64,000 nt of DNA, from contig CAWCKJ010000006.1 in the NCBI GenBank assembly GCA_963796105.1, forward strand, positions 128,001 through 192,000, read 5' to 3'. This DNA is from a candidate division FCPU426 bacterium (GTDB lineage Bacteria > Oederibacteriota > Muellerivitia > Muellerivitales > Muellerivitaceae). This document shows positions 1,320-62,993 of this stretch, in pieces. Under the pieces are notes generated by a model, which was not told where the DNA came from, ran no database searches, and worked only from the letters and a program-made list of their open reading frames with translations. Made by a program: the position numbers and the translations under genes. The stretch's first letter is position 1. Each line of letters begins with the position of its first letter.

Positions 1320-1454
1320 CCGGGACGAGTCAAGCCACGCGGAAATTTCTTACTCTTATGTTGTAGCGCTATGAGCCGGTTGAAATTGGGTTTTTGCAGC
1401 TTAGGACTTGTGTTACAATCCTCCCTCTTCCGCAAGCCATTCTTTTTAATTTTT

Positions 1455-1528
1455 TGGGAGATCGTCTAATGGTAGGACAGCAGATTCTGGATCTGCTTAT
1501 CTAGGTTCGAATCCTAGTCTCCCAGCCA
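1455..1528 (+). tRNA. tRNA-Gln (anticodon CTG)
   Basis: Acceptor stem TGGGAGA/TCTCCCA, anticodon arm GCAGA-TTCTGGA-TCTGC, T arm CTAGG-TTCGAAT-CCTAG, encoded CCA end; 74 nt. Confidence 0.97.
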
Positions 1529-3046
1529 TTTCTCGTTTAAGCCGTTGGCTCCCACGCTAACGGCTTCTTTATTGGAGTTTCCCAAGTTCGAAACCGCAAT
1601 CAGCTCAAAGGGTTGGCGGAAATTAACTGATAATTTCCCCTCTTTCCAGGAACTTTGCGCAAAGAAAGACGAAACCAACCGCCTTTTCTCGATTGGGTTT
1701 TGCTCCATGAATGTTTTATGGGACTTGGAAGCCATTTCCAAAAGCTTGATTCCTTCGTCCAGGTAGTTATAGTTTGCTTTTTGGTGGGCGTGAATGGTTT
1801 CCATGATTTTTTCCATTTCCGCTTTCCAATCCTTCGATTTACGGTCAAAGAATTCTTGGGTTATCTTTCCATCCAGTTTGTCCTCGTACATGGTATCTAT
1901 ACGGCCTTGAATCTTGGTTGATTCGGCTTGTAGGCGGCTTATTGCCTCGTTATGGAAGGTTTTTTCGTCCTTGTGGCTTGATTTAAGGGCATTAACGATT
2001 AGTTCCAATACCTTGTCATCAATCTCCAAGGCTTTAAGGCTGGTTACGAATTCCTTTTCGAGGGTTTCTTCCCGTGTGTAGGGTTCAGGGCATTTACCTT
2101 TCCAGCCCGTGCAATGGTAATAAACATATTTACCTTTCTTGAGTTCTCCCACCATTAAACAACCGCAATGACCGCAAGTAACAAGCCCGGCATAGCAAAA
2201 GTTATGCTTGGATTTTTTAGACTTGCTTTGGTTTCGTTTATCCAAAATATTTTGAACTTGGTTCCATAGTTCCTTGGAAATGATAGGTTCATGGTTTCCC
2301 TTGTAGGTAATCCCTTTCCAATCGAAATCCCCGCAATAGGTTCTCGTTCGAAGCATTCTATGGATGGAGGAAACGGGTAAAGGTTTCTTGCTTCTTCGAA
2401 ATACCAATCCCGAATTTTTGAATTCCTGGGTTATTTCTTTCAAAGAATAATCCCCGGTAGCGTATTCTTGGAATAGCTTGGCGATTATTGGGGCGTATTG
2501 GAGGTCTATTTCGATGATCTTCTTCCCATTTGCCCCTGTTATGTTTTTAAACCCAATAGGGGCAACGGAAGGCCAAATTCCTTCTTCCGCTTTTTCCTTT
2601 AAGCCTTTCTTGGCTTCCTCCGAAAGGTTGTCTATATAGTGCTTTGCCATTACCACCTTGATTCCATGAATGAGCTTTTCATTAGACCGGGAATTGGGGG
2701 AAATAAGGGTGTTTTCCTTTACTAGGTAAATTTCCAAGCCTAGTTCATCCAAAGTAACCCAATCTTTCAAATTCCGGTAAAGGCGGTCTGTTTTTTCGAC
2801 TAAGAGGGTTTTATAGGAAGGGTTTTTCTTGAAGAAGGTTATTAAGCTATCGAAACCTTCCCGGCCTGATACCTTGGCGGTTTCTACGTCTCCGAATTCC
2901 TGAATGATTTCATAACCGTTATTAAAGGCGAAATCCCTTAATAGCTTGTATTGGGCTTGAATAGAGAAACCTTCCTTTTCCTGTTCCTTGGAAGAAACAC
3001 GGACATAGAGGACGGCTTTCTTGGGGGAGTTACTTGGAAGGTTCAT
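1514..3046 (-). CDS. Large serine recombinase (resolvase + recombinase + Zn-ribbon + coiled coil)
   Basis: Catalytic YVRVSSKEQ, DRLYR, GNHEPII, and CGHCG...YYHC...C zinc ribbon; 510 aa. Confidence 0.93.
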   Translation of the reverse strand: MNLPSNSPKKAVLYVRVSSKEQEKEGFSIQAQYKLLRDFAFNNGYEIIQEFGDVETAKVSGREGFDSLITFFKKNPSYKTLLVEKTDRLYRNLKDWVTLDELGLEIYLVKENTLISPNSRSNEKLIHGIKVVMAKHYIDNLSEEAKKGLKEKAEEGIWPSVAPIGFKNITGANGKKIIEIDLQYAPIIAKLFQEYATGDYSLKEITQEFKNSGLVFRRSKKPLPVSSIHRMLRTRTYCGDFDWKGITYKGNHEPIISKELWNQVQNILDKRNQSKSKKSKHNFCYAGLVTCGHCGCLMVGELKKGKYVYYHCTGWKGKCPEPYTREETLEKEFVTSLKALEIDDKVLELIVNALKSSHKDEKTFHNEAISRLQAESTKIQGRIDTMYEDKLDGKITQEFFDRKSKDWKAEMEKIMETIHAHQKANYNYLDEGIKLLEMASKSHKTFMEQNPIEKRRLVSSFFAQSSWKEGKLSVNFRQPFELIAVSNLGNSNKEAVSVGANGLNEKWLGD

Positions 3047-4496: not shown

Positions 4497-4816
4497 AAAC
4501 CCATCAAACCCATTACCCATAAACCCATAACCCACCCTAAACCCATTCTTAGAATCCCATTCTTAAGAATGCCATTCTTAAGAATCCCATTCGGTATGGC
4601 TTAAAAGACTTTATTTATAGGTTTATTAACCTATAACCCACCCTAAACCTATTCTCAGAATCCCATTCTTAAGAATCCCATTCTTAGACACCCATTCTTA
4701 AGAATCCCATTCGGTATGGCTTAAAAGACTATATTTATAGGTTTATTAACTCATAACCCACCCTAAACCCATTCTTAGAATGCCATTCTTAGAATCCCAT
4801 TCTCAGAAACCCATTA
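4497..4816. repeat. Nested tandem repeat: 14-15 bp CCCATTCTT(A)AGAAT units inside 106-120 bp higher-order units
   Basis: ATAACCCACCCTAAACC starts at 4527, 4633 and 4753; the block CCCATTCGGTATGGCTTAAAAGACT.TATTTATAGGTTTATTAAC occurs twice. Confidence 0.9.
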
Positions 4817-4979
4817 CTCACCGATCTATTTAGATTGGTTAGGGGAGGTTTGAGGGGGAAAAAAGGGGGATTAAAGGGGGAATATTCGGGGAATTTCATC
4901 ATGATATGGCCGTAATTTAACAATTCACTTTGTTATAATGATCAAAAGCTATCTAGTTATCTTTCGATGGGATAAGGAA

Positions 4980-9062: not shown

Positions 9063-11333
9063 ATGATGGTAATAATTCCGAAATCAATAATTAAAAATGT
9101 GGCCAAACAAGTAGCAGACACATATTTTGCAAATAATGAACGGTTTCAACAAGTGAAAGGAGCGGAAGAGAAGAAACTCGAAGATTTTCTATTTCTTTCT
9201 GTGTGTTCTTTCCTGGCGGATGATATCGAAGGTTTGGGTTTGTTCGTTTATAAATTAATTGATTTTTTGCCAGTGGAAATAAAGGATGTATTGATAAATC
9301 GTTGGAATGGAAACATCGCTTCCTTTAATGATGATTTTTTATCGGCAAAAAAATATTTGGAAAATGCTTATTCAATAGCAAGAGAAAATCAAATTGAAGA
9401 ATGGTTAATTCGAGATATTTTATTGGATTTGCGTAATTCAACATTTCGTCTGGCTGAAAAAAATAAAAATTATGGGCGCAATACAGAATTTCTTGATTCG
9501 TTAGAAAATTTAGAAGATTGGAATTTTACGCCATGCCTTGATAGAAGTTTATTGGACGGTATGGAAGATGTTCAAAACATACTTTTTAAAAAATTCACTG
9601 ATTCCCCAAATACAATTTATATTACCGATCAAAGTATTCCACAAACATTAGAGCATGTAGTAGAAGCTATTTGTTATGGAATGTGTTTTGGTTCTTATAC
9701 ATATTTAAGAGTTATACGAGATCGATTAGCACAAATATTCTATATTTACTCTAAAAACTATAATTCTTTTGATTTGTTAAGAGAAGCGTTACGGCTTTTT
9801 GCTATGGAAGCAAGTATTGGCTCGATTAAAAAGATTTTGGAAACGGACAAAGAACGATTGTATGCAGGGGTTTCAGGAAGCCCCGAAAAATTAATAAATT
9901 ATATTGTGCCAAAAAGAGAAGGTGACCTTAGCAAAATTATTAGGTGTGTTCTAATTGAATCTTTAGGTGAATATCTTCCTGATGAAAAAATTACCGATAT
10001 AGAAAAATACTTAATGGTTTGTTTAGAAGGCCAATTTTCTTTAAGTGAAACTCTAGACCTGAAGAGATCGGCTTTACGTTCGCTTTCCAAAAATGTAGAA
10101 CGCATAAATATGAATCAAATTATTTCAAAATTACTAGGTTTGATAAGCAACAATCGCTTAGTTAATGATGAAATATTGGAATTGCTTGCGAGAGTTTCTT
10201 GGAAAAACATTACAAAAGAAGTGGCATTTAATGTTGCGAAGAAATTAGTGGAAATTAAAACATTATTTCATAGTTCAAATAAACTTTATGAAATCCTACT
10301 TGAAATCAGAAATGATTATGGGCCTTATAATCCGGAATATGAAAGTTCTCTTTTAAAGGAATGCGAAAATTTAAAATCTTTAGATGCTGTATATTATTTT
10401 TCAAAATTAACGGGTGAAGATTATCAACAAGAACGACAAAAAATAGCATTAGAAATATTAGAGAGATTGGAAAAAGGCAATTCTGTACTTCATGGCCAAA
10501 GTCCGGTTATAGTTTCATCTTTTGGTGGATACAACATTATTTATATATATTTCCAGTATGCATCCAATGGAATCTTTGGAAATATTCAGAGAGCTGCGGA
10601 AATCTATAAATCAATATTAGAGAATCCTAATCATTATGTTTCTGCGAAATACGCAACTTTAAACATGATTTCGGTACTTTTTCATTCTGGTAATAAACTT
10701 GCTGTGGAATATGGTCCGAAAATTGTTGAGAGTTGTTATAACGATCAAAAAAAAGTTCTTAAATATACTGATGACGATTTATTTAAAGAAGGCTACAAAG
10801 AGAGGTTGGAATTAAAACTTCACCAAATGTATTTGGCCTTTTCAAAAAAGCTTACTTTCGATGAAATAGTTGTAAAGTCATCAGAATATTTAATGAATGG
10901 CTTAAGAGACATTAGGTTAGAAGCAGTAGAGTTTTTGAAAGAGGCCTTAAACATTTGTTCGGATTCTGAAAAGAATGCTTTATTCGAATTGTTATATATG
11001 AAAACATTTGATAGTTCGGAAACGGTAAGACTAACGGCTATCACTGCGTTAAATGATGCAACAATGAATAAAACTAACTGGTCCGAGATTTGTATTAAAC
11101 GTATGAAAATATTGGTTAAGGATAGCAATGATCTTGTCAGAAATTCTGTTGTGATTTCTGCTCGAAAAGGATTAATGAATTCTAAAAACGAAGGATATGT
11201 TTCGATACTTGAATGGGCAAAACTCGATGCGCATTATGCAATTCGTAATCGAGCAAAGAAAGCTTTAGAGGAATTCCTACAACCCCCCAAAATTTCAAAA
11301 AGGGAAGAATTAAAACCTAATTCCGAAAACTGA
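9063..11333 (+). CDS. Large alpha-helical protein with C-terminal HEAT-like repeats
   Basis: DSSETVRLTAITAL, DSNDLVRNSVV and DAHYAIRNRAKKAL; 756 aa; no NTPase motif seen. Confidence 0.65.
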   Translation: MMVIIPKSIIKNVAKQVADTYFANNERFQQVKGAEEKKLEDFLFLSVCSFLADDIEGLGLFVYKLIDFLPVEIKDVLINRWNGNIASFNDDFLSAKKYLENAYSIARENQIEEWLIRDILLDLRNSTFRLAEKNKNYGRNTEFLDSLENLEDWNFTPCLDRSLLDGMEDVQNILFKKFTDSPNTIYITDQSIPQTLEHVVEAICYGMCFGSYTYLRVIRDRLAQIFYIYSKNYNSFDLLREALRLFAMEASIGSIKKILETDKERLYAGVSGSPEKLINYIVPKREGDLSKIIRCVLIESLGEYLPDEKITDIEKYLMVCLEGQFSLSETLDLKRSALRSLSKNVERINMNQIISKLLGLISNNRLVNDEILELLARVSWKNITKEVAFNVAKKLVEIKTLFHSSNKLYEILLEIRNDYGPYNPEYESSLLKECENLKSLDAVYYFSKLTGEDYQQERQKIALEILERLEKGNSVLHGQSPVIVSSFGGYNIIYIYFQYASNGIFGNIQRAAEIYKSILENPNHYVSAKYATLNMISVLFHSGNKLAVEYGPKIVESCYNDQKKVLKYTDDDLFKEGYKERLELKLHQMYLAFSKKLTFDEIVVKSSEYLMNGLRDIRLEAVEFLKEALNICSDSEKNALFELLYMKTFDSSETVRLTAITALNDATMNKTNWSEICIKRMKILVKDSNDLVRNSVVISARKGLMNSKNEGYVSILEWAKLDAHYAIRNRAKKALEEFLQPPKISKREELKPNSEN

Positions 11334-12888: not shown

Positions 12889-14904
12889 TCAATCGAGAGC
12901 CCCATCCAAGGTTAAGCCCTCCTGCGAGGCCTGTATATCTTCCTTAGAAACCTCCACCGTCAATACGTCGATACCGTTTCGAGGGTTCTTAATCGAACCC
13001 CAGATGGCCCTGGGGTAAACCTGATGTAACTTTTCCTGGAGTTCCGGGTATTCCCAGGGCGGAATAATAAATAATACGTTTTTAGACACATTTTTCCGGA
13101 TAGGCACCTCGAAATGATCCCCCATTTGGTTGAAGGTGAATAAATCATGAGTCAGCACATATACTGTACTCGAGCTGTAAACGAAATCCAGCAACGCGTG
13201 GCAGCGGGGGCATTGGGTTCTCAGATATTCGGCGACTTGTATATGGTTGAAGCCCAGCAAATCCCAATAGTTGGGGCCCTCAGCCTTGAAATTCCGGAAG
13301 GAAAAATAGTAGGTGAATATATTCCAAACTAAGGCCGCCGTTACTAGTAAGGTTAATAACATTTTGCCTGTTCTTTTCATGGCCAAGGTCAAAGCGGAAA
13401 AAATCCCGATAACCCGATCCAAGGTCCAAGCAGCTACGAAAAAAAGGAATGGGACCACTAGAAAGTAACGCTGGCCGTTAACGGAAGTTGGATCCGGATT
13501 GGGACCTTGTATGGCGAAGGCGTTAGCCACAATGCCGAAAAATAGGCCGCCCAAGGATATCCAACAGGCTCTTTGCCTCCAATGAAGGACTGCCCATAGG
13601 AGGCCGAATGCCATCAAGCTTCCCGAAACCGGATCCAGCTGAGGCGCGTTGGCGCAAAAACGGGGGTCCAGCCCGTCATTGCGGTTGAGAAAGGAAAGGA
13701 AAGTCCAAGCCATTCTTTTGAAAATAAGGGCGTAATGTCCCGTCCTTTGAACTTCCGCGAGAAGGCTTAGTTCCTTAGCGCGGCCAAGTATCGTGTAGGG
13801 TTCCTGGAAGGCGTAAATGATAAAGGGGCCAGCCAGCCACAGCATGGAAAGGGCGCCCAAGGGTAGGTATCGGGAGTGGTTTCTCCAAAAAGGTCTACCT
13901 TCCACGGCCCAGATCCCTAAAACCGCGAATCCGGCCATGAATACCACAAGCCGGCCCGGCAAATATTCCAATTCGCAAAAGGCGATGAAGAGGCCTGCCC
14001 AAAAATAATCGGATTTCCGGCCTTGTTTCAAGGCCTTAGAAAGGAAATAAAACGCCAGGATTTCCCAAAAGGCCACCAGCATGTCTTGGAAAGGGGAAAG
14101 ACTATAAAAAAGGTACCACCAACCAATGGACATCAAAAAGACGGACAGAATTGAGGGAAGGAAAGCGAAGAATAGACGGCACCAAAGGTAGAAAATATAT
14201 AGGGCTCCCAAAGAAATGAGAGCGGAAAAAAGCCTGGCTGAACCACAAGACGTGCCGAAAATCCTCATGAATAGGGATAACCACCAAAAATGAAAGGATT
14301 CATTTCCTCCCCAGCTTGCGATAAAAGGGGACTTGAGTGAGCCATTCAGAAAGCTATAAGCGTCCCGAATACAGTTCGCTTCGTCGATTTGAAAGCCGGT
14401 GATATGCTGGCCGATGAAGGGCAATCTCATGGCCGCGGCAATCAAGAGGACCAAAGCGAGAAGTTTCTTTTCAACATCAGGTCCAGGGGACCACGCTTTT
14501 TCAGGGCTTGCCAGGGAGATTTGAGTAAACATGAAAAAAGCAACAGCCCAGGAGGCAAAAGCCAGGGCGTATAAGCGGGCTGAAAAGAAAAATTGTCCCA
14601 TCCCCGCGAAAAAAATAGCCGCGCCCAAGGGGAACAAATCATCCCATTTTGGGCTGGATCTGCCTTTTTTAATTAAGGGTTTGGGGGACATGGATTCCCG
14701 GTTTTCAGGAAGGAGAGGTATCCGCTTGGGAAAAGCTTTCCATATCATGAATAGGGACAAAATCTGGAATGGAGCGCCGGAAAACCAACGCTGATCCTGG
14801 GATCCTGACCAAAGATAGGCTCCGACCGCGCCCGAAAGGATACCAACGAGACAATAGAGCCAGTTGAACTTATTTTTTCCTAAGGGGTTGGTTTTTTTTC
14901 TCAC
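12889..14904 (-). CDS. GT-C fold glycosyltransferase (ArnT/PMT-like)
   Basis: Many TM helices; periplasmic DE motif (GFQIDEA), SARLFSALISL and GQRYFL. Confidence 0.75.
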   Translation of the reverse strand: MRKKTNPLGKNKFNWLYCLVGILSGAVGAYLWSGSQDQRWFSGAPFQILSLFMIWKAFPKRIPLLPENRESMSPKPLIKKGRSSPKWDDLFPLGAAIFFAGMGQFFFSARLYALAFASWAVAFFMFTQISLASPEKAWSPGPDVEKKLLALVLLIAAAMRLPFIGQHITGFQIDEANCIRDAYSFLNGSLKSPFIASWGGNESFHFWWLSLFMRIFGTSCGSARLFSALISLGALYIFYLWCRLFFAFLPSILSVFLMSIGWWYLFYSLSPFQDMLVAFWEILAFYFLSKALKQGRKSDYFWAGLFIAFCELEYLPGRLVVFMAGFAVLGIWAVEGRPFWRNHSRYLPLGALSMLWLAGPFIIYAFQEPYTILGRAKELSLLAEVQRTGHYALIFKRMAWTFLSFLNRNDGLDPRFCANAPQLDPVSGSLMAFGLLWAVLHWRQRACWISLGGLFFGIVANAFAIQGPNPDPTSVNGQRYFLVVPFLFFVAAWTLDRVIGIFSALTLAMKRTGKMLLTLLVTAALVWNIFTYYFSFRNFKAEGPNYWDLLGFNHIQVAEYLRTQCPRCHALLDFVYSSSTVYVLTHDLFTFNQMGDHFEVPIRKNVSKNVLFIIPPWEYPELQEKLHQVYPRAIWGSIKNPRNGIDVLTVEVSKEDIQASQEGLTLDGALD

Positions 14905-54625: not shown

Positions 54626-55273
54626 GGGTTTATTTTACGTTGAAAGACGTTTTTTTGCAGGATAAAGGACCGATGCCTGTGAAGAAGGCATTAAGCATGG
54701 ATAAATTCTTATGTCTTTCGCTTGATTGAAGACTTGGAAAACAACCCATAGCTGCCCAAATAAAACAAAATCAATGGAACAAAGATAATCAAAATCAAGT
54801 TTTTGGCCACAGATTCAGGGGATGTGCTGATTCAACCCTGAAGCATTTAAGGAAATCGGCACTATACCGAACTTTCATTGAAGGCTTTAATGAGGTTCGG
54901 CATGCAGGGGGATGAATACAAATGAACAATTCAAAAATGTCTCAGATCATGACAAGAGCATGGCTCTTGCGCCCGATGGGCGTTATGGTCAAGCCTACAG
55001 ACCGTGGAAAAATTAATTTTTCCATCGGCTGTCAGCTTAACCATAGAACATGATCAAAATGCGTTTTAATTCCCATGAATCCCATGCATGCCGGCCTTCC
55101 TATAAGTAATCAAAGAGGAAATGGCTTTGCCATTTCAGGGGGTATCGTACCAATCACCCTATAAGCTTTATGGTAGATTGGCACATCCGTGGCTAGAAAT
55201 TATTTTGGAGAGGTGTAACAATAAACATTATGTTTGCCTGGAATCCGGGAATCCATGGGTCAAGGAGCTGGTG

Positions 55274-56254: not shown

Positions 56255-56399
56255 GGATGGCAGTTGACTTGTTTGGCGGACGAGGCGCGCAGGCAAAACC
56301 GGAAGGGAACCGCTGAAACTTTCACGGAGTAATGCTCATTCCAACATGGATTTGTCCAATCAGGATCCCCATCATGGACAAGTTTCAATCATCCAGAAG

Positions 56400-57248
56400 T
56401 TAATTTGAATCAAAGTCCGTTTTGTTCACCAACTTCCCCGTTTGAACGTCGATCACCGAAAACCAGTGGCGTGTCAAAACTAAAAAAGCTTTTTCACTCA
56501 ACCAAAACCCATGAAGCCAAAAATAGCCATTTGGTGGCTCCTCAAAATGGAACGCGGAAACGTTGTCAACCAAAAGGTCGAAATCCTTATTGGGACCTGC
56601 CAGCCGGAAAGAGGCGTTATGCTTCCCGGAAGGGGACGGTTTTAATTTTAAATAATCATTGCGTTCTTCGGCCTGGGAAGACGCGAAAGTCTCAAATTCA
56701 GATTGGGTCATAAGACGGTATTCATTCATCTTAAAGTCAAAACAATAATTACCTTCGTTTTTTAGGGTTTCAGTTACGGTTGGGTCTGGGGTCGGTATAG
56801 GCCGGGGCAGCAAATCACCCTCCGGCTTCAAACGGCTACCGATGAAAAAAGAAAATTTCGTGTCCTCGGGGTTCCAAATACGGTTTCGATCCCCGTTAAA
56901 GAACATGTAGTAATATTCCCGGGACCCGAATGGACACTGAAATATCTTTTTTTGAATTCCATCATCAACGCCATAAAGCCATATGGAATTATCCCACCGC
57001 GTTATGATGATTCGCTTTTGGTCGTTTGAGAGTGCGAAATCCCCTATTCGCGCAAATTGACTTTCATCAAACTTAACTTTTTTGGTTATGACGGCACCCG
57101 ATGGATAAATTTTGTAGAGATCCATGGAATACTTATAATCCGAATGGATCAAAAGCTTATAACTTTCAGTGGGCACCCCGATTGATAAAACGGGAATAAA
57201 TAACAAGGTTAAAAGATAAATATACTTTTTAATTTTACGCCTCCCCAT
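56400..57248 (-). CDS. Exported hypothetical protein, possibly TolB-like beta-propeller
   Basis: Basic then hydrophobic N-terminus; LSNDQKRI, WNPEDTKF and PSPSGK blade-like motifs. Confidence 0.55.
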   Translation of the reverse strand: MGRRKIKKYIYLLTLLFIPVLSIGVPTESYKLLIHSDYKYSMDLYKIYPSGAVITKKVKFDESQFARIGDFALSNDQKRIIITRWDNSIWLYGVDDGIQKKIFQCPFGSREYYYMFFNGDRNRIWNPEDTKFSFFIGSRLKPEGDLLPRPIPTPDPTVTETLKNEGNYCFDFKMNEYRLMTQSEFETFASSQAEERNDYLKLKPSPSGKHNASFRLAGPNKDFDLLVDNVSAFHFEEPPNGYFWLHGFWLSEKAFLVLTRHWFSVIDVQTGKLVNKTDFDSN

Positions 57249-57344
57249 CGTAGACGAGCCATTTAATTCAAAACTTAAAATTCAAAATTCATAATTGGTT
57301 TACTACCCTCCCCGTCAGTGGACAATATCTTCTGACCTTAAATT

Positions 57345-57572
57345 TTAGACAATGACTTTTTTTACCGTATCCGTTTTTAAAATCACTTCTCCAGCTTCGT
57401 TTTTAATTGAAAAGTTATAGCCGAATTTGGCGCCGTCGGCGCTTTTGCCTCTGATAACATCCCCCACTTTATAACGACCGGCGGGATTGGCGACACGGGT
57501 GACCGTAGCCGCCACGTGGACCGGGTCAAATTCCAATGTGATCATTGGGGTTTCGATAATCATAATAGCCAC
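57345..57572 (-). CDS. Small hypothetical protein (75 aa)
   Basis: Single ORF filling the space between two repeat sites. Confidence 0.55.
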   Translation of the reverse strand: MAIMIIETPMITLEFDPVHVAATVTRVANPAGRYKVGDVIRGKSADGAKFGYNFSIKNEAGEVILKTDTVKKVIV

Positions 57573-57749
57573 CTTATTCAGGTCTCCAAGTTATCAAGCT
57601 ATTCCTCATTTTTCATTGTCCACTCCCACTGCGTCACGCTGCGGAGCGTGGCGCTCCCCATCGTGGACAACTATTATCAATGTGGAACGAGGATCTCCCC
57701 GTCGTGGACAAAAAATGACCTCAATTTTGAAGGGAGTTATGGCTCCTTT

Positions 57750-58115
57750 TTAATGTGCCGTGCGGATTTTAACGCCTAATGAGCGGCTGACGGCCCACAA
57801 CGCCTTATCCCGGGTCCAAAATTCAGATTGATCCGAGGAACAGGAAAATAATAAATGAGCGTCCACCCAATTGATGCCTTTGCCGTAAAGGCGGTGCTTC
57901 TCAACCCAGTCCATGACTTCCGGATTTAAAGCGGGAAACACGCGGGGCAGTAATTGGAGGTCGTGCAGGATTTGGCTTCTGTTTTTAAAATGTCCCAGGG
58001 CCAATTCGCCAATGATAAAAGGGTGGGTAAGGGCCTCGTCCTTTTCCAAAAGGGAAATGAGAAACGCGTCCGGGGAATGGAGGTGGTCGATCCACACTGA
58101 AGTATCGACAAGCAT
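57750..58115 (-). CDS. vapC: VapC PIN-domain toxin
   Basis: LVDTSVWIDH, HPFIIGELALG, VDAHLL and WTRDKAL. Confidence 0.9.
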   Translation of the reverse strand: MLVDTSVWIDHLHSPDAFLISLLEKDEALTHPFIIGELALGHFKNRSQILHDLQLLPRVFPALNPEVMDWVEKHRLYGKGINWVDAHLLFSCSSDQSEFWTRDKALWAVSRSLGVKIRTAH

Positions 58116-58315
58116 TACGCTTTAACGGCTCGCCGCCTGCGGGGAGGCGCGGAAGCGCGGGGATCGGTTCCGCCCATGGCCGCAAGCCGCTTGGCGGCTT
58201 CCCGGCGGATGAGGGATTCAAGACCCATGCGGACCAGGGAGGTCTTTTCGGCCACGCCCGTCATTTGACCGGCTTCTTTTAATAGATGGTCATCGATGTT
58301 CAATGTTGTTCTCAT
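58115..58315 (-). CDS. vapB: VapB antitoxin
   Basis: MRTTLNIDDHLLKEA..TG..EKTSLVR.GL; promoter TTGACA(58351-58346)-17-CATATT just upstream. Confidence 0.88.
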   Translation of the reverse strand: MRTTLNIDDHLLKEAGQMTGVAEKTSLVRMGLESLIRREAAKRLAAMGGTDPRASAPPRRRRAVKA

Positions 58316-58454
58316 ATGCATCAATATGCAATTTTGATATGCATGTGTCAAGGGCCGATTTCGGGGATCTTAAAAGCGATCAATGGGGACTGACCCGGGA
58401 AAAGGCCTCTCAAATGCCGGAAGGGGAATTTTTGGCAATAGAGGCTTGCTGTAG

Positions 58455-58572
58455 CGGGCCACGATTCAGGGGTACCCCGTAGCGTGTTGCCGGACTTGCC
58501 CTGTAGCGTATCGCGAAACGATTCTGCTAACAGGGAGGCAATCCCGCAACTGGGGTCCCCGTCATGGACAAG
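58455..58572. repeat. 118-bp non-coding repeat, second copy at 61821-61938
   Basis: CGGGCCAC..TTCAGGGGTA.CCCGTAGCGTGTTGCC..CTTGCCCTGTAGCGTATCGCGAAACGATTCTGCTAAC.GGGAGGCAA; both copies end in the array motif. Confidence 0.92.
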
Positions 58573-58761
58573 CCTTTCACATGATTTTACCCTTTTGATT
58601 AAAAAAGACGAGAACACCCGCCGCGAACCCTCAAGCCTCTGTGCTGAGGCTTCAAGCCGAACCCTATGGTTTGAGTTAGTTGGAGCCCCCTTCAAAAAGG
58701 CCATAGGCCGGAGAAAAGTGGTGCGCTTGACCGAATGTCTCATTTGTGAGACTATAATCAA

Positions 58762-59079
58762 GTGATATCACCGCTGCCACAATGCGTGAAAGAGATCGCG
58801 GAATTCCCCCAAGAGGTACGGGAAGATCTCGCTGACGCTTTAGCGCGTTTGGATGAAGGTCACACGCTTTCCATGCCCTTATCCCGGCCGATGCCTTCAA
58901 TTGGAAAGGGTGTTCATGAATTAAGATTCAGGGATCGCGCGGGAATTTACCGGGTGATCTATGTTTTGGTTGGCGCAGGAATAATTTATTTGGTTCATGC
59001 TTTTGCGAAAAAAGACAAGAAGACGCCGATGCCGAATATTGATTTGGCGAAAAAACGCTTGAGGGAAGTGAAAAGATGA
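58762..59079 (+). CDS. RelE/ParE (HigB/Gp49-like) toxin
   Basis: GVHELRFRDRAGIYRVIY and VHAFAKKDKKTP..IDLAKKRL. Confidence 0.88.
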   Translation: MISPLPQCVKEIAEFPQEVREDLADALARLDEGHTLSMPLSRPMPSIGKGVHELRFRDRAGIYRVIYVLVGAGIIYLVHAFAKKDKKTPMPNIDLAKKRLREVKR

Positions 59080-59363
59080 AACATAAAAGTACGGCGGTTG
59101 AAATTGCGAAATTGGCGGGTATTTCTCCAGCGAGAGGAATGGAAGCTATTATCAAAGCACAACTGATAACAGCTGTTTTGCAAGCCATTCAAGTTAAGAA
59201 AATAACTCATCTGGAACTCGCGAAGCGCGCAAAGCTCCCGAGGAGCGCCGTGACGGGTATTCTTTCGGGCAGTTTACGGAAGGTAACCATTGATCGGGTT
59301 CTAAGGCTTATTGAAGCGGTGGGTCTTATCGCGGAGATACGAATTAGGAAATATGCCGCTTAA
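59076..59363 (+). CDS. XRE HTH antitoxin (HigA-like)
   Basis: ITHLELAKRAKLPRSAVTGILSG helix-turn-helix; 4-nt overlap with the toxin. Confidence 0.85.
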   Translation: MKHKSTAVEIAKLAGISPARGMEAIIKAQLITAVLQAIQVKKITHLELAKRAKLPRSAVTGILSGSLRKVTIDRVLRLIEAVGLIAEIRIRKYAA

Positions 59364-59461
59364 AGAAAGTTCCGGGGAAACATTTTCAAATAAGATAGTC
59401 AGTACTACTGACTGTTCACGCTGGGTCCCCGTCGTGGACAAAAATTTCTAACATTGGTCTT

Positions 59462-60544
59462 TTAAGGGTTGTACTTCATGACCGTAATCTTGCCGCCGTG
59501 GTTCGAATCCGCGAAAGCCACGTAAGGGATGGAGCCATTGAGGGCCATCGAGGTGTAAAAAGCTCCCTCGGGAGAGAACCCAGGGCTCCCCACGTTCACC
59601 CATTTGGTTCCGTTGAAGGTCATCACCGTGGATGAGCCGTTATTCCCCCCATCCTGGTAGGCCACATAAGGCGTGGACCCGTTGAAGGCCAAGTTGATGT
59701 ACCAAACCTGCCCGGCGGAAAAACTCGGGTTTCCCACGTTCACCCAACTGCTCCCGTTGTACGACATGACCGTGGTTCTCAGGTTCTCGTCTTGAAAAGC
59801 CACATAGGGCGTGCTTCCGTTGATGGCGATGGCGTTATAAAGGATATATCCGGAAGCAAAGCTCGCGCTCCCCACATACCACCAACTTCCCCCGGTGTAA
59901 TCCATCACCGAAGAACCGAAAGTCACATAGGGCGTGCTTCCATTGAAGGCCAGGGCCGGGTAAAGGCCCGAGCTAAAGCCAGGCGTCCCCACGTACTGCC
60001 AACTGGTCCCGCTATACATCATGACCGAATTCCCATTGCCATAAGCCCCGTCTATAAAAGCCACGTAGGGCGTGGAGCCGTTAAAGGCCAAAGACATGTT
60101 AACGGCATTCGCGCCGTTGAAGCTCGCCCCGCCTACTGTCACCCAGTTGCTCCCGTTAAAGGTCATCAGCATGCCGTAGTTGTAGTATCCCGAATCCGCG
60201 TAAGCAACATAGGGGTAGCCCCCGTACATGGCCATGGAGATCCAGGAGGGCCCCCCGGCGGAAAACCCCGGGCTCCCCACGGATGTCCAGGCGCTCCCGT
60301 TGTACATCATGACCGTGGCCTTGCCCCCGTTTCCCCCGTCCCCATAGGCTACGTAGGGCGTGGTACCGTTGAAGGCAATGGAGATATAAGTGACGGGTCC
60401 GGCTGAGAAACCAGCGCTTCCCACGGTCACCCAGTGGGTGTTAACGGGGCCAGTCGGGTTGGTGGTATTATTGGAACAGCCCCCCAGCCAAAACGCGGTT
60501 AATACCGCCCCCAGCGCCATCGCCCATGATTGAACTCGGTTCAT
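59462..60544 (-). CDS. Lipoprotein with seven ~46-aa repeats (probable 7-blade beta-propeller)
   Basis: Lipobox LGGC; repeat W..VG...FS.G.....LAFNGSTPYVA(Y/F).D seven times. Confidence 0.8.
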   Translation of the reverse strand: MNRVQSWAMALGAVLTAFWLGGCSNNTTNPTGPVNTHWVTVGSAGFSAGPVTYISIAFNGTTPYVAYGDGGNGGKATVMMYNGSAWTSVGSPGFSAGGPSWISMAMYGGYPYVAYADSGYYNYGMLMTFNGSNWVTVGGASFNGANAVNMSLAFNGSTPYVAFIDGAYGNGNSVMMYSGTSWQYVGTPGFSSGLYPALAFNGSTPYVTFGSSVMDYTGGSWWYVGSASFASGYILYNAIAINGSTPYVAFQDENLRTTVMSYNGSSWVNVGNPSFSAGQVWYINLAFNGSTPYVAYQDGGNNGSSTVMTFNGTKWVNVGSPGFSPEGAFYTSMALNGSIPYVAFADSNHGGKITVMKYNP

Positions 60545-60832
60545 GCCAGCCTCCCATGAAGAATTAAAAGAGGCTGGTATCGTACCGATTTCAAAATCCG
60601 GTTTATGGTTAATCGGTACATGTCAATTTCCTTTCCTGTTTAGATTCTTAGCCGGCATTTTACAAAACATTTATTGAGGTGGATATTAATATGCTGCGAA
60701 TTGAACAGCCTAATAACAAGGTAAATCGATCTTTCGCCTGTCCACGATCCCTGCGACAAGCCGGCCTGTCACCAGAAGCCAATGGGCGAAGGGGGAGGGC
60801 TTGACGCTCCCCGTCGTGGACAACAAAAGAAT

Positions 60833-61051
60833 CTACGACCAATTTTCAAGGGGGATACCGCTGCCTTCGATGATGCTTTTGAGAGTGCCAAGAGGGAGGT
60901 CTCTTCCCTTATGAAATGGCACGATGACCTGTTTTTCGGTTTGGGAGTTACGCCACTTTTGATGGCTCCCCTTGCTTGCGGCAAGGGAAAAACCATTATG
61001 CCGGAGTATTCGGATAATTTCATTCGGCTTAAGGCGGGGATATTTGGAACC
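60833..61051 (-). pseudogene. hicA: HicA mRNA interferase lacking an in-frame start codon
   Basis: A frame not in the ORF track reads GSKYPRLKPNEIIRILRHNGF...KGSHQKW...VIVPFHKGRDLPLGTLKSII; the TTG at 61053 is out of frame. Confidence 0.8.
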
Positions 61052-61055
61052 AAGG

Positions 61056-61259
61056 TTAAAGGGCTAGTGCTTTGACTTTTGCGTTTTTGGCGAAATGGAT
61101 TTTCGGGGAAGGCTCAAGATATAGCTCAATGGCTTCATGGATGTTCTTCATGGCCTCTTTTTCCGTATCTCCGCAGCTTGTACAGCCAGGAAGTTCGGGG
61201 CAATAGACCGCGTAGGATTTCGTTTGTTTGTCGTATTCTAAAACAACCCGAATTTGCAT
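61056..61259 (-). CDS. hicB: HicB antitoxin (short form)
   Basis: YAVYCPELPGCTSCGDTEKEAMKNIHEAIELYLE; RBS GGAGG. Confidence 0.9.
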   Translation of the reverse strand: MQIRVVLEYDKQTKSYAVYCPELPGCTSCGDTEKEAMKNIHEAIELYLEPSPKIHFAKNAKVKALAL

Positions 61260-61454
61260 GGTTACCTCCGGAATTCAAAACATTGTATTACATAGGCATG
61301 CAAACTGTCCGAAACCGTTTGGAATGTCTATGTATTTGTTTGCCCCTTCGGTTCCCAGTCGTGGACAAGTCTATAAATTCAAAATTTAACATTCAAAATT
61401 CATAATTGTTGTACAATCCTCCCCGTTGTGGACAACCTATTCCTCAACCCCTGA

Positions 61455-61709
61455 TCATTTGAACCTGACGCAGAGAACGTTATAAAGCCAGGCTAGAACG
61501 ACACCGCCCACCCCTCCATCCACCAGGCCATAAGCAGCCCCGATCAAACTTCCGGCGGGGCTGATGTCATAACCCCGATAGATGTGTCCAAGCAACATCA
61601 GGTCGTGGGTTGACCCCTCGAAAAGGATGACCCACCAAGTCAAGCCTAAGACTCCCAGGCCCCACAACAAACCACAAGTCAATCCGAACGCTTTGATGTT
61701 TATCTTCAT
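61455..61709 (-). CDS. Small 2-TM membrane protein (resembles proteins annotated as putative holins)
   Basis: MKINIKAFGLTCGLLWG...GY.ISPAGSLIG..YGLVDG..GG...AWLYN. Confidence 0.65.
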   Translation of the reverse strand: MKINIKAFGLTCGLLWGLGVLGLTWWVILFEGSTHDLMLLGHIYRGYDISPAGSLIGAAYGLVDGGVGGVVLAWLYNVLCVRFK

Positions 61710-62095
61710 CACAACCCCCTTTTTATTTACCACTGTCAAACCTTCTCCCTTTATCCATGAAAGGTCCCCATCATGGACGCGTTTATCAATGCGACCATTT
61801 GAAGTAGAGGCCCGTAACAACGGGCCACACTTCAGGGGTATCCCGTAGCGTGTTGCCGAACTTGCCCTGTAGCGTATCGCGAAACGATTCTGCTAACCGG
61901 GAGGCAACTCTGCTACTGGGATCCCCGCCGTGGACAAGTCATTTAATTCGAAACTTTAAATTCGAAACCCATGCTGAAATTGCCGAAGTATTGATTTTTT
62001 ATCCAGTTTTAATTTATACCTTCATTCATAATTCGAAATTCAGAATTTAAAATTGTGTTTAACCTTACCCTCCCCGTCATGGACATTACTTTTTT

Positions 62096-62506
62096 TCAAG
62101 ACCAGGGATTTAAAAGCTTCAATCCGGTAAATGAAAAGTCCTGGGTATTACGGGTGACCAAGGTGAGATTGTGGGTAATTGCTGTTGCGGCTAGAAACGC
62201 GTCCACTGTCGGCAAGGGGCGATTGGCCTGGGCTTCTAAGAGACCCCAAACTTCGGCAACTTTGAGATCAACCGGTAATATCCTTTCCTCAAATTGAATC
62301 GGAATATCCTTTTCCAGGAATTGAACAAGCTTGGTTTTTCGGGAACCGTGTTCCATTTTTTCAATTCCTTTGCGGATTTCTCCCACGGTCAAAACGCTCA
62401 AGTAAAGCGAGGCCTGGTCCGCGCCCCTCAGCCAATTTGATACCTTGGGTTCCGGATGTTTCTTAAAGAGTTCGGAAAGGACATTAGTGTCCAAAAGGTA
62501 TCTCAA
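62096..62506 (-). CDS. vapC: VapC PIN-domain toxin
   Basis: YLLDTNVLSE, SVLTVGEI, DAFLAATA and LVTRNTQDF. Confidence 0.92.
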   Translation of the reverse strand: MRYLLDTNVLSELFKKHPEPKVSNWLRGADQASLYLSVLTVGEIRKGIEKMEHGSRKTKLVQFLEKDIPIQFEERILPVDLKVAEVWGLLEAQANRPLPTVDAFLAATAITHNLTLVTRNTQDFSFTGLKLLNPWS

Positions 62507-62751
62507 AGCTTCACCTTGCGGGAGACGGATTTATTCCTTCGAAACTGATGGTCCAGGCCGTGAAAAGGAGAATCCCTGAAAAACTCAACCAGGTTGGGTT
62601 TGGCTTTTCTCAGGCGCTCATAGTCCTTTTTGGAAATCACAACAGCTTCCTCACGGCCATGCAATGTAATGGATTGCGGGCCGTTGTTTTTCACTGTTCG
62701 AATTAGTTCGCTGAACCTGGCCTTGGCGGTTTGCAGTTGCCATGAAGTCAT
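62503..62751 (-). CDS. Phd/YefM antitoxin
   Basis: WQLQTAKARFSELI...GPQSITLHG..AVVIS...Y. Confidence 0.9.
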   Translation of the reverse strand: MTSWQLQTAKARFSELIRTVKNNGPQSITLHGREEAVVISKKDYERLRKAKPNLVEFFRDSPFHGLDHQFRRNKSVSRKVKL

Positions 62752-62820: not shown

Positions 62821-62993
62821 TTTTCGCCGCTCATCATTGAATCCGCGCCTGATAACGAACGGCATCATAATATTGAATCGGCAACTTTTCTTTTTCCCCA
62901 TTGTCTATTGCACCTTTTCATCGGAAACAAAAAGGCCATTTCGAAGTTTCAACCCAAAATGCGATGGGGAAGCATCAAGGGCAGGGAACCGTC

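Follow-up and report, generated by a model that had tools for sequence, protein, structure and literature searches.

A gene-cassette array exchanged at the center of a 30-bp palindrome, likely by a shortened serine recombinase, in a candidate division FCPU426 bacterium

A cassette array built on a 30-bp palindromic site

The window analyzed in this study is a stretch of 64,000 nucleotides from a candidate division FCPU426 bacterium (assembly GCA_963796105.1, contig CAWCKJ010000006.1, positions 128,001 to 192,000) that harbors, near its right end, a series of small gene units separated by copies of a short repeated motif. Judged from sequence comparisons, this is very likely a gene-cassette array whose units are exchanged at the center of a 30-bp palindrome, likely by a shortened serine recombinase, and it is one of many such arrays. 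The original prediction, made from the letters of the window alone, had described same-orientation copies of a 14-mer as recombination sites. The copies were confirmed: the plus strand carries 12 of them between positions 56366 and 62071, 8 exact and 4 with a single mismatch, and a 13th near 57310 has a one-base insertion; the chance expectation for the whole window is 2.1 copies at up to two mismatches. The proposed site, however, had been recognized only in part. Alignment of the exact copies genome-wide revealed that the 14-mer, although a real repeat, makes up just the right half of an imperfect palindrome of 30 bp (14-2-14) with the sequence TTGTCCACGAYGGG-TC-CCCRTCGTGGACAA, in which the left arm is degenerate and the right arm is conserved.

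For further analysis, sites from this genome, from regions of five relatives, and from GTDB and metagenome loci were pooled, and exact duplicates were removed, yielding 562 sites; six GTDB loci from unrelated taxa were excluded before pooling, and two other such single-match loci were kept. The 30-bp form accounts for 483/562 sites. Seventeen of the 562 are long variants (54 to 55 bp, some longer) with a 24- to 72-bp hairpin at the core, which fold into an outer stem, an unpaired spacer, and a variable inner stem. Their hairpin inserts measure 24 to 25 bp and sometimes 56 to 72 bp, and they vary in sequence while pairing is kept. Since two long-variant left ends were found beside different right neighbors, such sites may still recombine. 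The orientation of the sites is unrelated to local GC skew (22 positive, 25 negative), and an Rfam scan of the array returned nothing at gathering level. A role of the left arm as source of a −35 box was rejected, as no excess of −10 boxes at a distance of 16 to 18 nt was seen in 454 sites.

Within the window, minus-strand genes end shortly before the sites, as predicted, with stop codons 10 to 39 nt from the right-arm end. Family scans also recovered the predicted cargo of four toxin-antitoxin (TA) units, a holin-family gene, a lipoprotein-like gene with repeats, and two proteins that match no family, with the reservation that the HicA frame has no in-frame ATG, GTG, or TTG start. For the Phd-VapC unit at the right end, no significant upstream site was detected; the candidate at 62901-62930 is no better than 5.6% of genome positions.

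Two further repeats were observed in this array. The gene-less units at 57258-57295, 61369-61405, and 61938-62056 have a common AT-rich element that also occurs elsewhere in the genome away from sites and shows a sigma-70-like match on the plus strand in two copies. In addition, a 146-bp direct repeat (84% identity; 58432-58577 and 61798-61943) with a site at its end forms the 5' region of two different cassettes and has no Rfam match.

Cassettes are mobile and exchanged within the site core

Beyond the window, the same organization was found. Site-to-site segments have a median length of 842 bp, 187/210 of them are coded on the strand opposite the motif, and neighboring sites are co-oriented in 343/352 pairs. 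In 321/450 sites, the right arm has a stop codon at a distance of at most 60 nt (median, 21 nt), compared to 50/397 in a mirror control. Each cassette begins at a right arm and ends at the left arm of the following site, with its gene directed towards the right arm.

Comparison of flanking DNA revealed 96 site pairs that share only the right flank and 115 that share only the left; in seven of the right-flank pairs, identity is 100% on the shared side while the opposite side is unrelated. Copies of the holin cassette of the window are present in another array of this genome (contig C5, 95%) and in locus L071 (94%), with different neighbors each time. Fixed gene content between the sites, named with the original prediction as an outcome that would speak against it, was thus not observed: identical cassettes occur with unrelated neighbors, and the break lies inside the site.

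The position of this break was mapped using pairs with at least 95% identity on the shared flank, after removal of arms split by introns or insertion sequences (IS). Thirteen left-sharing pairs match at 92 to 100% across the left arm and at 38% at position +15, whereas 14 right-sharing pairs match at 85 to 100% from the core to +15 and at 35 to 64% at positions −7 to −4 (background, 42 to 52%). The left arm goes with the left-side DNA and the right arm with the right-side DNA, which places the apparent exchange point in the site core, between −1 and about +4. At the sequence level, cassette mobility is thereby demonstrated.

Arrays occur throughout the family

At loose thresholds, this genome contains 85 distinct sites, while one shuffled genome gave 5 and 2; with stricter thresholds, 61 sites form 24 clusters, 13 of which comprise at least two sites. 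The motif is present in 24/24 family genomes searched, with 9 to 127 copies each (reversed control, 0 to 7). The sole genome from another family of the order contains one small array, and in 15 other genomes of the phylum, the matches listed lie scattered and only two of them are exact. Two full sites were found in one public record labelled Candidatus Firestonebacteria bacterium (L049). Viral contigs yielded 1 and 55 single motif matches and no arrays, plus one recombinase relative with 55% identity and no adjoining site.

In this genome, the gap between panB and panC contains a 1,125-bp insertion with a site. The gap measures at most 51 bp in 21/28 relatives' loci, and none of these loci has a full site; a clean empty allele was not among them. 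One public DNA run containing 7% of the array's words, at a depth of only 2 to 3, had no joints in its contigs, which carries no weight either way; no RNA run with the array was listed. Altogether, this is a real, family-wide gene-cassette system.

A short serine recombinase adjoins the site

Short relatives of a serine integrase of 510 amino acids (aa) encoded in the window were found in a search with that protein, which covered proteins of 152 to 487 aa only, and their own stop codon lies just before an array's first site. They form 19 clusters of 275 to 283 aa with Resolvase and Recombinase domains only (PF00239 and PF07508); a zinc ribbon and a coiled coil are absent in 19/19. The clusters are 74 to 100% identical to the query, the next matches reach at most 61%, and the catalytic motifs are invariant. 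In a quick tree, the short clade forms one side of a branch with a Shimodaira-Hasegawa-like approximate likelihood ratio (SH-aLRT) of 100, beside island integrases of the same lineage. Ratios of nonsynonymous to synonymous substitution (dN/dS) were 0.05 to 0.16 in 11/15 pairs of six intact genes, with the other 4 saturated, which argues that these genes are not decaying fragments.

A site or its left arm lies 7 to 35 nt past the stop codon in 8/8 loci fetched by protein (5 with intact and 3 with partial genes), in one of which a group II intron splits the recombinase-adjacent site. Two further gene-bearing loci were fetched by site; the gene is broken in one, and in the other it is intact with a reversed site 108 nt away. 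Full-length relatives have such a site in 0/14 cases. The gene ardC is located beside the short recombinase in 2/6 intact loci, and radC is nearby, which suggests that the recombinase gene is carried on a conjugative-type element.

The 510-aa integrase itself is located at a tRNA-Gln gene with no site near and was therefore rejected as the cassette enzyme. It is 71% identical to the integrase at the same position in the order-level genome and groups next to the short clade.

A remnant of the short recombinase gene is present in the array of the window. Positions 59366-59412 match the end of the gene plus a 13-bp palindromic linker (47 nt, 83% identity, E value 7e-7 in a whole-genome blastn search), the linker being the one that otherwise lies between the recombinase gene and its site. 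The stump reads KVPGKHFQIR-stop, versus KVLGKHFRIR-stop in the recombinase gene. The inverted RelE-XRE pair in front of it has the orientation and position of the recombinase gene in intact loci; the junction of XRE gene, stump, and site is 89% identical over 354 nt in L045, and stumps of 26 to 42 codons precede sites in L146 and L195. With stump, linker, and site following the RelE-XRE pair, the inverted unit looks like an element that once bore the recombinase and in which a toxin-antitoxin pair has taken the place of the interior.

A second possible 3' stump was noted at G000 C3:748280-748351 (72 nt, 72% identity, E value 3e-7), downstream of a long-variant site and with no site after it.

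Taken together, these data strongly indicate that the candidate cassette enzyme is the short serine recombinase. The original prediction of a cassette capture system with a recombinase other than IntI acting in trans, which named no enzyme, is supported, and the evidence points to the short serine recombinase. The action would not be purely in trans, as the gene adjoins the array elsewhere and its 3' stump is kept here.

Several observations weigh against this interpretation. An intact short recombinase was found in 5/32 genomes of the order and none in this genome, although sites occur in all family genomes searched, and its gene might simply be a cassette like the others. The AlphaFold model of the short enzyme matches serine integrases but is weak (predicted local distance difference test [pLDDT] score of 65). 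The crossover was mapped to the core only, which also fits a tyrosine recombinase or plain homologous exchange, and no excised circle or empty site was seen. The conservation of the core dinucleotide (TC in 542/562 sites) is overstated, since sites were picked by patterns containing the core. Left arms are often very degenerate, and the fixed 14-2-14 geometry does not account for the long variants. The two close strains of L164 and L198 have the same cassettes in the same order at five sites, which speaks against rapid turnover. Passages of PMC3783163 report that deletion of the zinc domain of the LI integrase weakens binding about 25-fold and that deletion of the coiled coil abolishes integration between molecules; a natural short enzyme must therefore differ, or insertion is rare.

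Other enzymes and other origins of the arrays

We also considered other enzymes. The only recombinase found wherever the sites are is a single Xer-type tyrosine recombinase, present in 23/24 family genomes and the order-level genome and in 0/15 others (E value 1e-30). Two genomes have no PF00589 match besides this protein, and its catalytic residues are intact. Relative to XerD, it has no IntI-type insertion and an invariant insertion of about 10 residues. Use of the cassette sites by this housekeeping enzyme, as dif-like 11-6-11 or 11-8-11 sequences, is nevertheless improbable. Any gene of the lineage would be expected to share the distribution of the sites, and in 28 loci the 1.5 kb around the xer gene are free of cassette sites. 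Instead, the xer promoter contains an AT-rich dif-like palindrome in 20/22 loci, in single copy here and unlike the cassette site; XerS/difSL and XerH/difH likewise have their site next to the gene (PMC5357621, in excerpts). Xer was dropped as the cassette enzyme since its own palindrome differs. A search of this genome for canonical dif-like motifs gave poor matches only.

Just past stop codons and able to fold as a hairpin, the site could alternatively be a palindrome resembling repetitive extragenic palindromes (REPs) or stabilizing RNA, reshuffled by host homologous or micro-homology recombination, with the serine recombinase as a passenger cassette. Group II introns enter the site as they do other hairpins (PMC7923331, in excerpts), and intact recombinase genes are missing from most array-bearing genomes. 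We regard this explanation as unlikely, too. The arms show no covariation (11.08 complementary positions in 214 short sites versus 11.09 ± 0.04 after shuffling), and a terminator U-tract is lacking, with at least 5 T in 8 positions in only 26/214 sites in the coding sense and 21/214 in the other. Together with the position of stop codons described above, the lack of a U-tract disposes of the earlier concern that the motif is a genome-wide REP or terminator unrelated to gene boundaries. Furthermore, breaks are confined to one 5-bp core rather than spread over 30 bp, and the recombinase is conserved and always adjoins a site. REP-associated tyrosine transposases (RAYTs) were rejected since Y1 transposases do not track the sites: they were not found in 7/24 family genomes with sites, including one with 127 copies, and those associated with REPs in this genome have other repeats nearby.

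A divergent integron, in which folded single strands would be recombined by an IntI-like or other enzyme with the long hairpin variants as true substrates, is highly improbable. The long variants do fold like attC, and the cassette layout is that of integrons. However, no protein exceeded the IntI cut-off (TIGR02249) in 41 genomes, and the absence of attC cores noted from the window alone extends to the whole pool: RYYYAAC occurs in 0/562 sites (stop-proximal arms), GTTRRRY in 8/562, and both together in 0/562. Moreover, most sites are of the 30-bp form, whose arms do not covary as those of a site read as a folded single strand should (the long variants being a minority exception), and the crossover is central and not in the distal arm.

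Generation of the cassettes by solo Cas1-Cas2 or IS110 elements is largely refuted and hardly credible: a cas1-cas2 unit is joined to the site in several arrays and IS110 transposase genes lie beside sites in some loci, but cas1 of whatever type was found in only 5/24 family genomes and IS110 in 0/5, for which reason both were rejected as the enzyme; the unit has its own 37-bp repeat, and repeat duplication would not make the arms segregate with opposite flanks.

The enzyme did not emerge when 1,236 proteins encoded within 3 kb of sites were clustered. A recurring neighbor of 662 aa is a membrane-type protein with no Pfam or Atlas match.

A possible mechanism and its relation to known systems

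The short serine recombinase would cut both strands at the central TC, and cassettes would be excised and re-inserted as circles. Passages of PMC3783163 describe that large serine integrases bind an att half-site via the recombinase domain and the zinc ribbon, that the coiled coil in the zinc ribbon decides which sites pair, with its deletion leading to promiscuous excision, and that exchange is efficient only in parallel alignment. An enzyme without zinc ribbon and coiled coil would accordingly recognize a short site by its inner arms only and, lacking the module for directionality control, could recombine any two sites; the non-palindromic TC core would keep the arrays co-oriented. The recombinase gene would travel on a mobile element bearing ardC and radC that enters at a site, act in trans on all arrays, and then decay, leaving orphan arrays such as the one in the window, in which toxin-antitoxin cassettes would slow cassette loss. 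We consider it probable that this is an independently evolved integron, in which a minimal serine recombinase derived from an island integrase by loss of the directionality module, compact (about 277 aa) and reversible, has made the 30-bp site a common means, throughout the family, of capturing, rearranging, and exchanging single genes. The size of 28 to 30 bp and the central dinucleotide recall the crossover sites of resolvases and invertases.

To our knowledge, integrons are the only well-described platform that stockpiles and shuffles single-gene cassettes. Their function requires a tyrosine recombinase together with sites that are folded single strands. The arrays described here resemble sedentary integrons and attC clusters that have no integron integrase (CALINs) in several respects (PMC8618304 and PMC9024848, in excerpts): tandem arrays are co-oriented and consist mostly of single-gene cassettes with the site just past the stop codon, toxin-antitoxin and gene-less cassettes as well as enzyme-less orphan arrays occur, and sites hold inserted group II introns and IS elements. 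Group II introns are known to use attC (PMC7923331, in excerpts), and the cassette site is used likewise here. Unlike in integrons, there is no IntI and no attC core, a 30-bp palindrome is crossed at its center, likely by a serine recombinase, and each genome has many short arrays. The recombinase gene is directed into the array, against the cassette genes, so that there is no Pc-like arrangement.

With large serine integrases (LI/A118, Bxb1, phiC31, and SPbeta), the short enzyme shares the catalytic and recombinase domains and the site next to the gene (PMC3783163, in excerpts; PDB matches), and its nearest relatives are island integrases, including the one at tRNA-Gln in the window. It differs from them in the absence of zinc ribbon and coiled coil, in a single type of 30-bp site instead of distinct and longer attP and attB, and in dozens of site copies per genome around passenger cassettes. 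Like the staphylococcal cassette chromosome (SCC) with CcrA/B/C, the system would comprise serine-recombinase-driven cassettes that can accumulate in tandem at repeated sites. SCC elements are tens of kilobases long at one locus and use full-length Ccr enzymes; here, by contrast, cassettes of 0.84 kb (median) occur at many loci. Scores against the Ccr NCBIfam models were far below cut-off.

Modules bounded by pdif or dif sites are also similar in that short bipartite sites, one arm of which is conserved and the other variable, bound accessory and toxin-antitoxin modules; pdif sites, however, are inversely oriented and recombined by XerC/XerD (both points from PMC9455709 and PMC5357621, in excerpts), whereas the present sites are co-oriented and unlike the host dif-like site. 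The system thus works like an integron or CALIN but fails the tests that define them, and it is neither a pdif module nor a standard large serine integrase system. No description of a serine-recombinase cassette array was found in the full-text literature, a search that took in listings and abstract openings only, without supplements, and left subscription journals mostly uncovered.

If this holds true, the integron design evolved more than once, here with a serine recombinase and a short double-stranded site, and integron surveys miss a whole pool of cassettes. It also becomes possible to test in what way sites are bound and paired by a natural serine integrase that lacks zinc ribbon and coiled coil, and a small reversible recombinase with a 30-bp site could serve as a tool.

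Table 1. Features of the array and related loci. Positions refer to the window unless a handle for a locus (L) or for a genome (G) and contig (C) is given.
Position	Strand	Feature	Remark
1439-3046		Full-length 510-aa serine integrase at tRNA-Gln	Integrase at 1514-3046
56352..56381	+	Leftmost 30-bp site	Both arms good
56400..57248	-	Cassette gene, 282 aa	No family
57228..57257	+	Site, right arm only	Left arm degenerate
57296..57325	+	Site with one-base right-arm insertion	Closes 68-bp gene-less unit
57345..57572	-	Cassette gene, 75 aa	No family
57616..57670	+	Long-variant site	Left arm, 25-bp hairpin insert, core, right arm
57682..57711	+	Site	Truncated end of a long variant as left arm
57750..58351	-	VapB-VapC cassette (PIN and VapB)	Sigma-70-like promoter match at 58351-58323
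58542..58571	+	Site	
58762..59363	+	Inverted RelE/Gp49-like toxin and XRE antitoxin (helix-turn-helix)	
59366..59411	+	Short serine recombinase 3' stump and 13-bp palindromic linker	Last ten codons, stop at 59396-59398
59412..59441	+	Site of recombinase-proximal type	
59462..60544	-	Repeat lipoprotein-like cassette gene, 360 aa	Weak Rax2 propeller match
60738..60823	+	Long-variant site	56-bp insert
60833..61259	-	HicB-HicA cassette	HicB and HicA domain matches
61339..61435	+	Two sites around a gene-less unit	Unit of 67 bp
61455..61727	-	Holin-family cassette	NF037947 over cut-off
61751..61780	+	Site	
61781..62056	+	Two gene-less units, 157 and 149 bp site to site	Split by site 61908-61937
62057..62086	+	Rightmost site	
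62096..62751	-	Phd-VapC unit (PIN and Phd)	Promoter match at 62820-62792
L126, L138, L141, L143, L161, L204, L239, L244		Further long-variant sites	In addition to those at 57616-57670 and 60738-60823
L003 5308-6430 (G000 C3:300.4-301.4 kb)		Cassette with degenerate sites between panB and panC	Genes adjacent in most relatives
L032 upstream of 7842 (G000 C3, about 369.9 kb); L097-L118		Xer promoter palindrome	
L004 about 9950-10650 and 13860-14560; L065, L076, L394		Introns or IS in left arm	
G000 C5:44.4-49.4 kb, C6:78.4-82.7 kb, C4:3.4/7.4, 828/830, 1339.6, 1471.8/1478.7 kb, C3:497.7 kb; L043, L061, L153, L195		cas1-cas2 and 37-bp repeat loci	

Other elements in and around the arrays

At least two kinds of group II introns, and probably an IS110 element, enter fixed positions of the left arm in either orientation. 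The solo cas1-cas2 unit joined to the 30-bp site is 97 to 98% identical between genomes and is followed by a 37-bp CRISPR-like repeat. This repeat is present in 14 copies in this genome (control, 0), mostly 1 to 7 kb apart, with array-specific variants and often nested in cassette arrays; it was found in 4/41 genomes. The combination looks like a system for the acquisition of kilobase-sized spacers.

A family of multi-copy palindromic repeats with no relation to the cassette site is represented at 54790-55215 of the window, with copies near REP-associated Y1 transposases. These transposases carry a DnaA-like C-terminal domain, and the genome has 16 Y1 matches in total. Finally, stacked short tandem repeats occupy an AT-rich intergenic stretch at 4500-4820 of the window.

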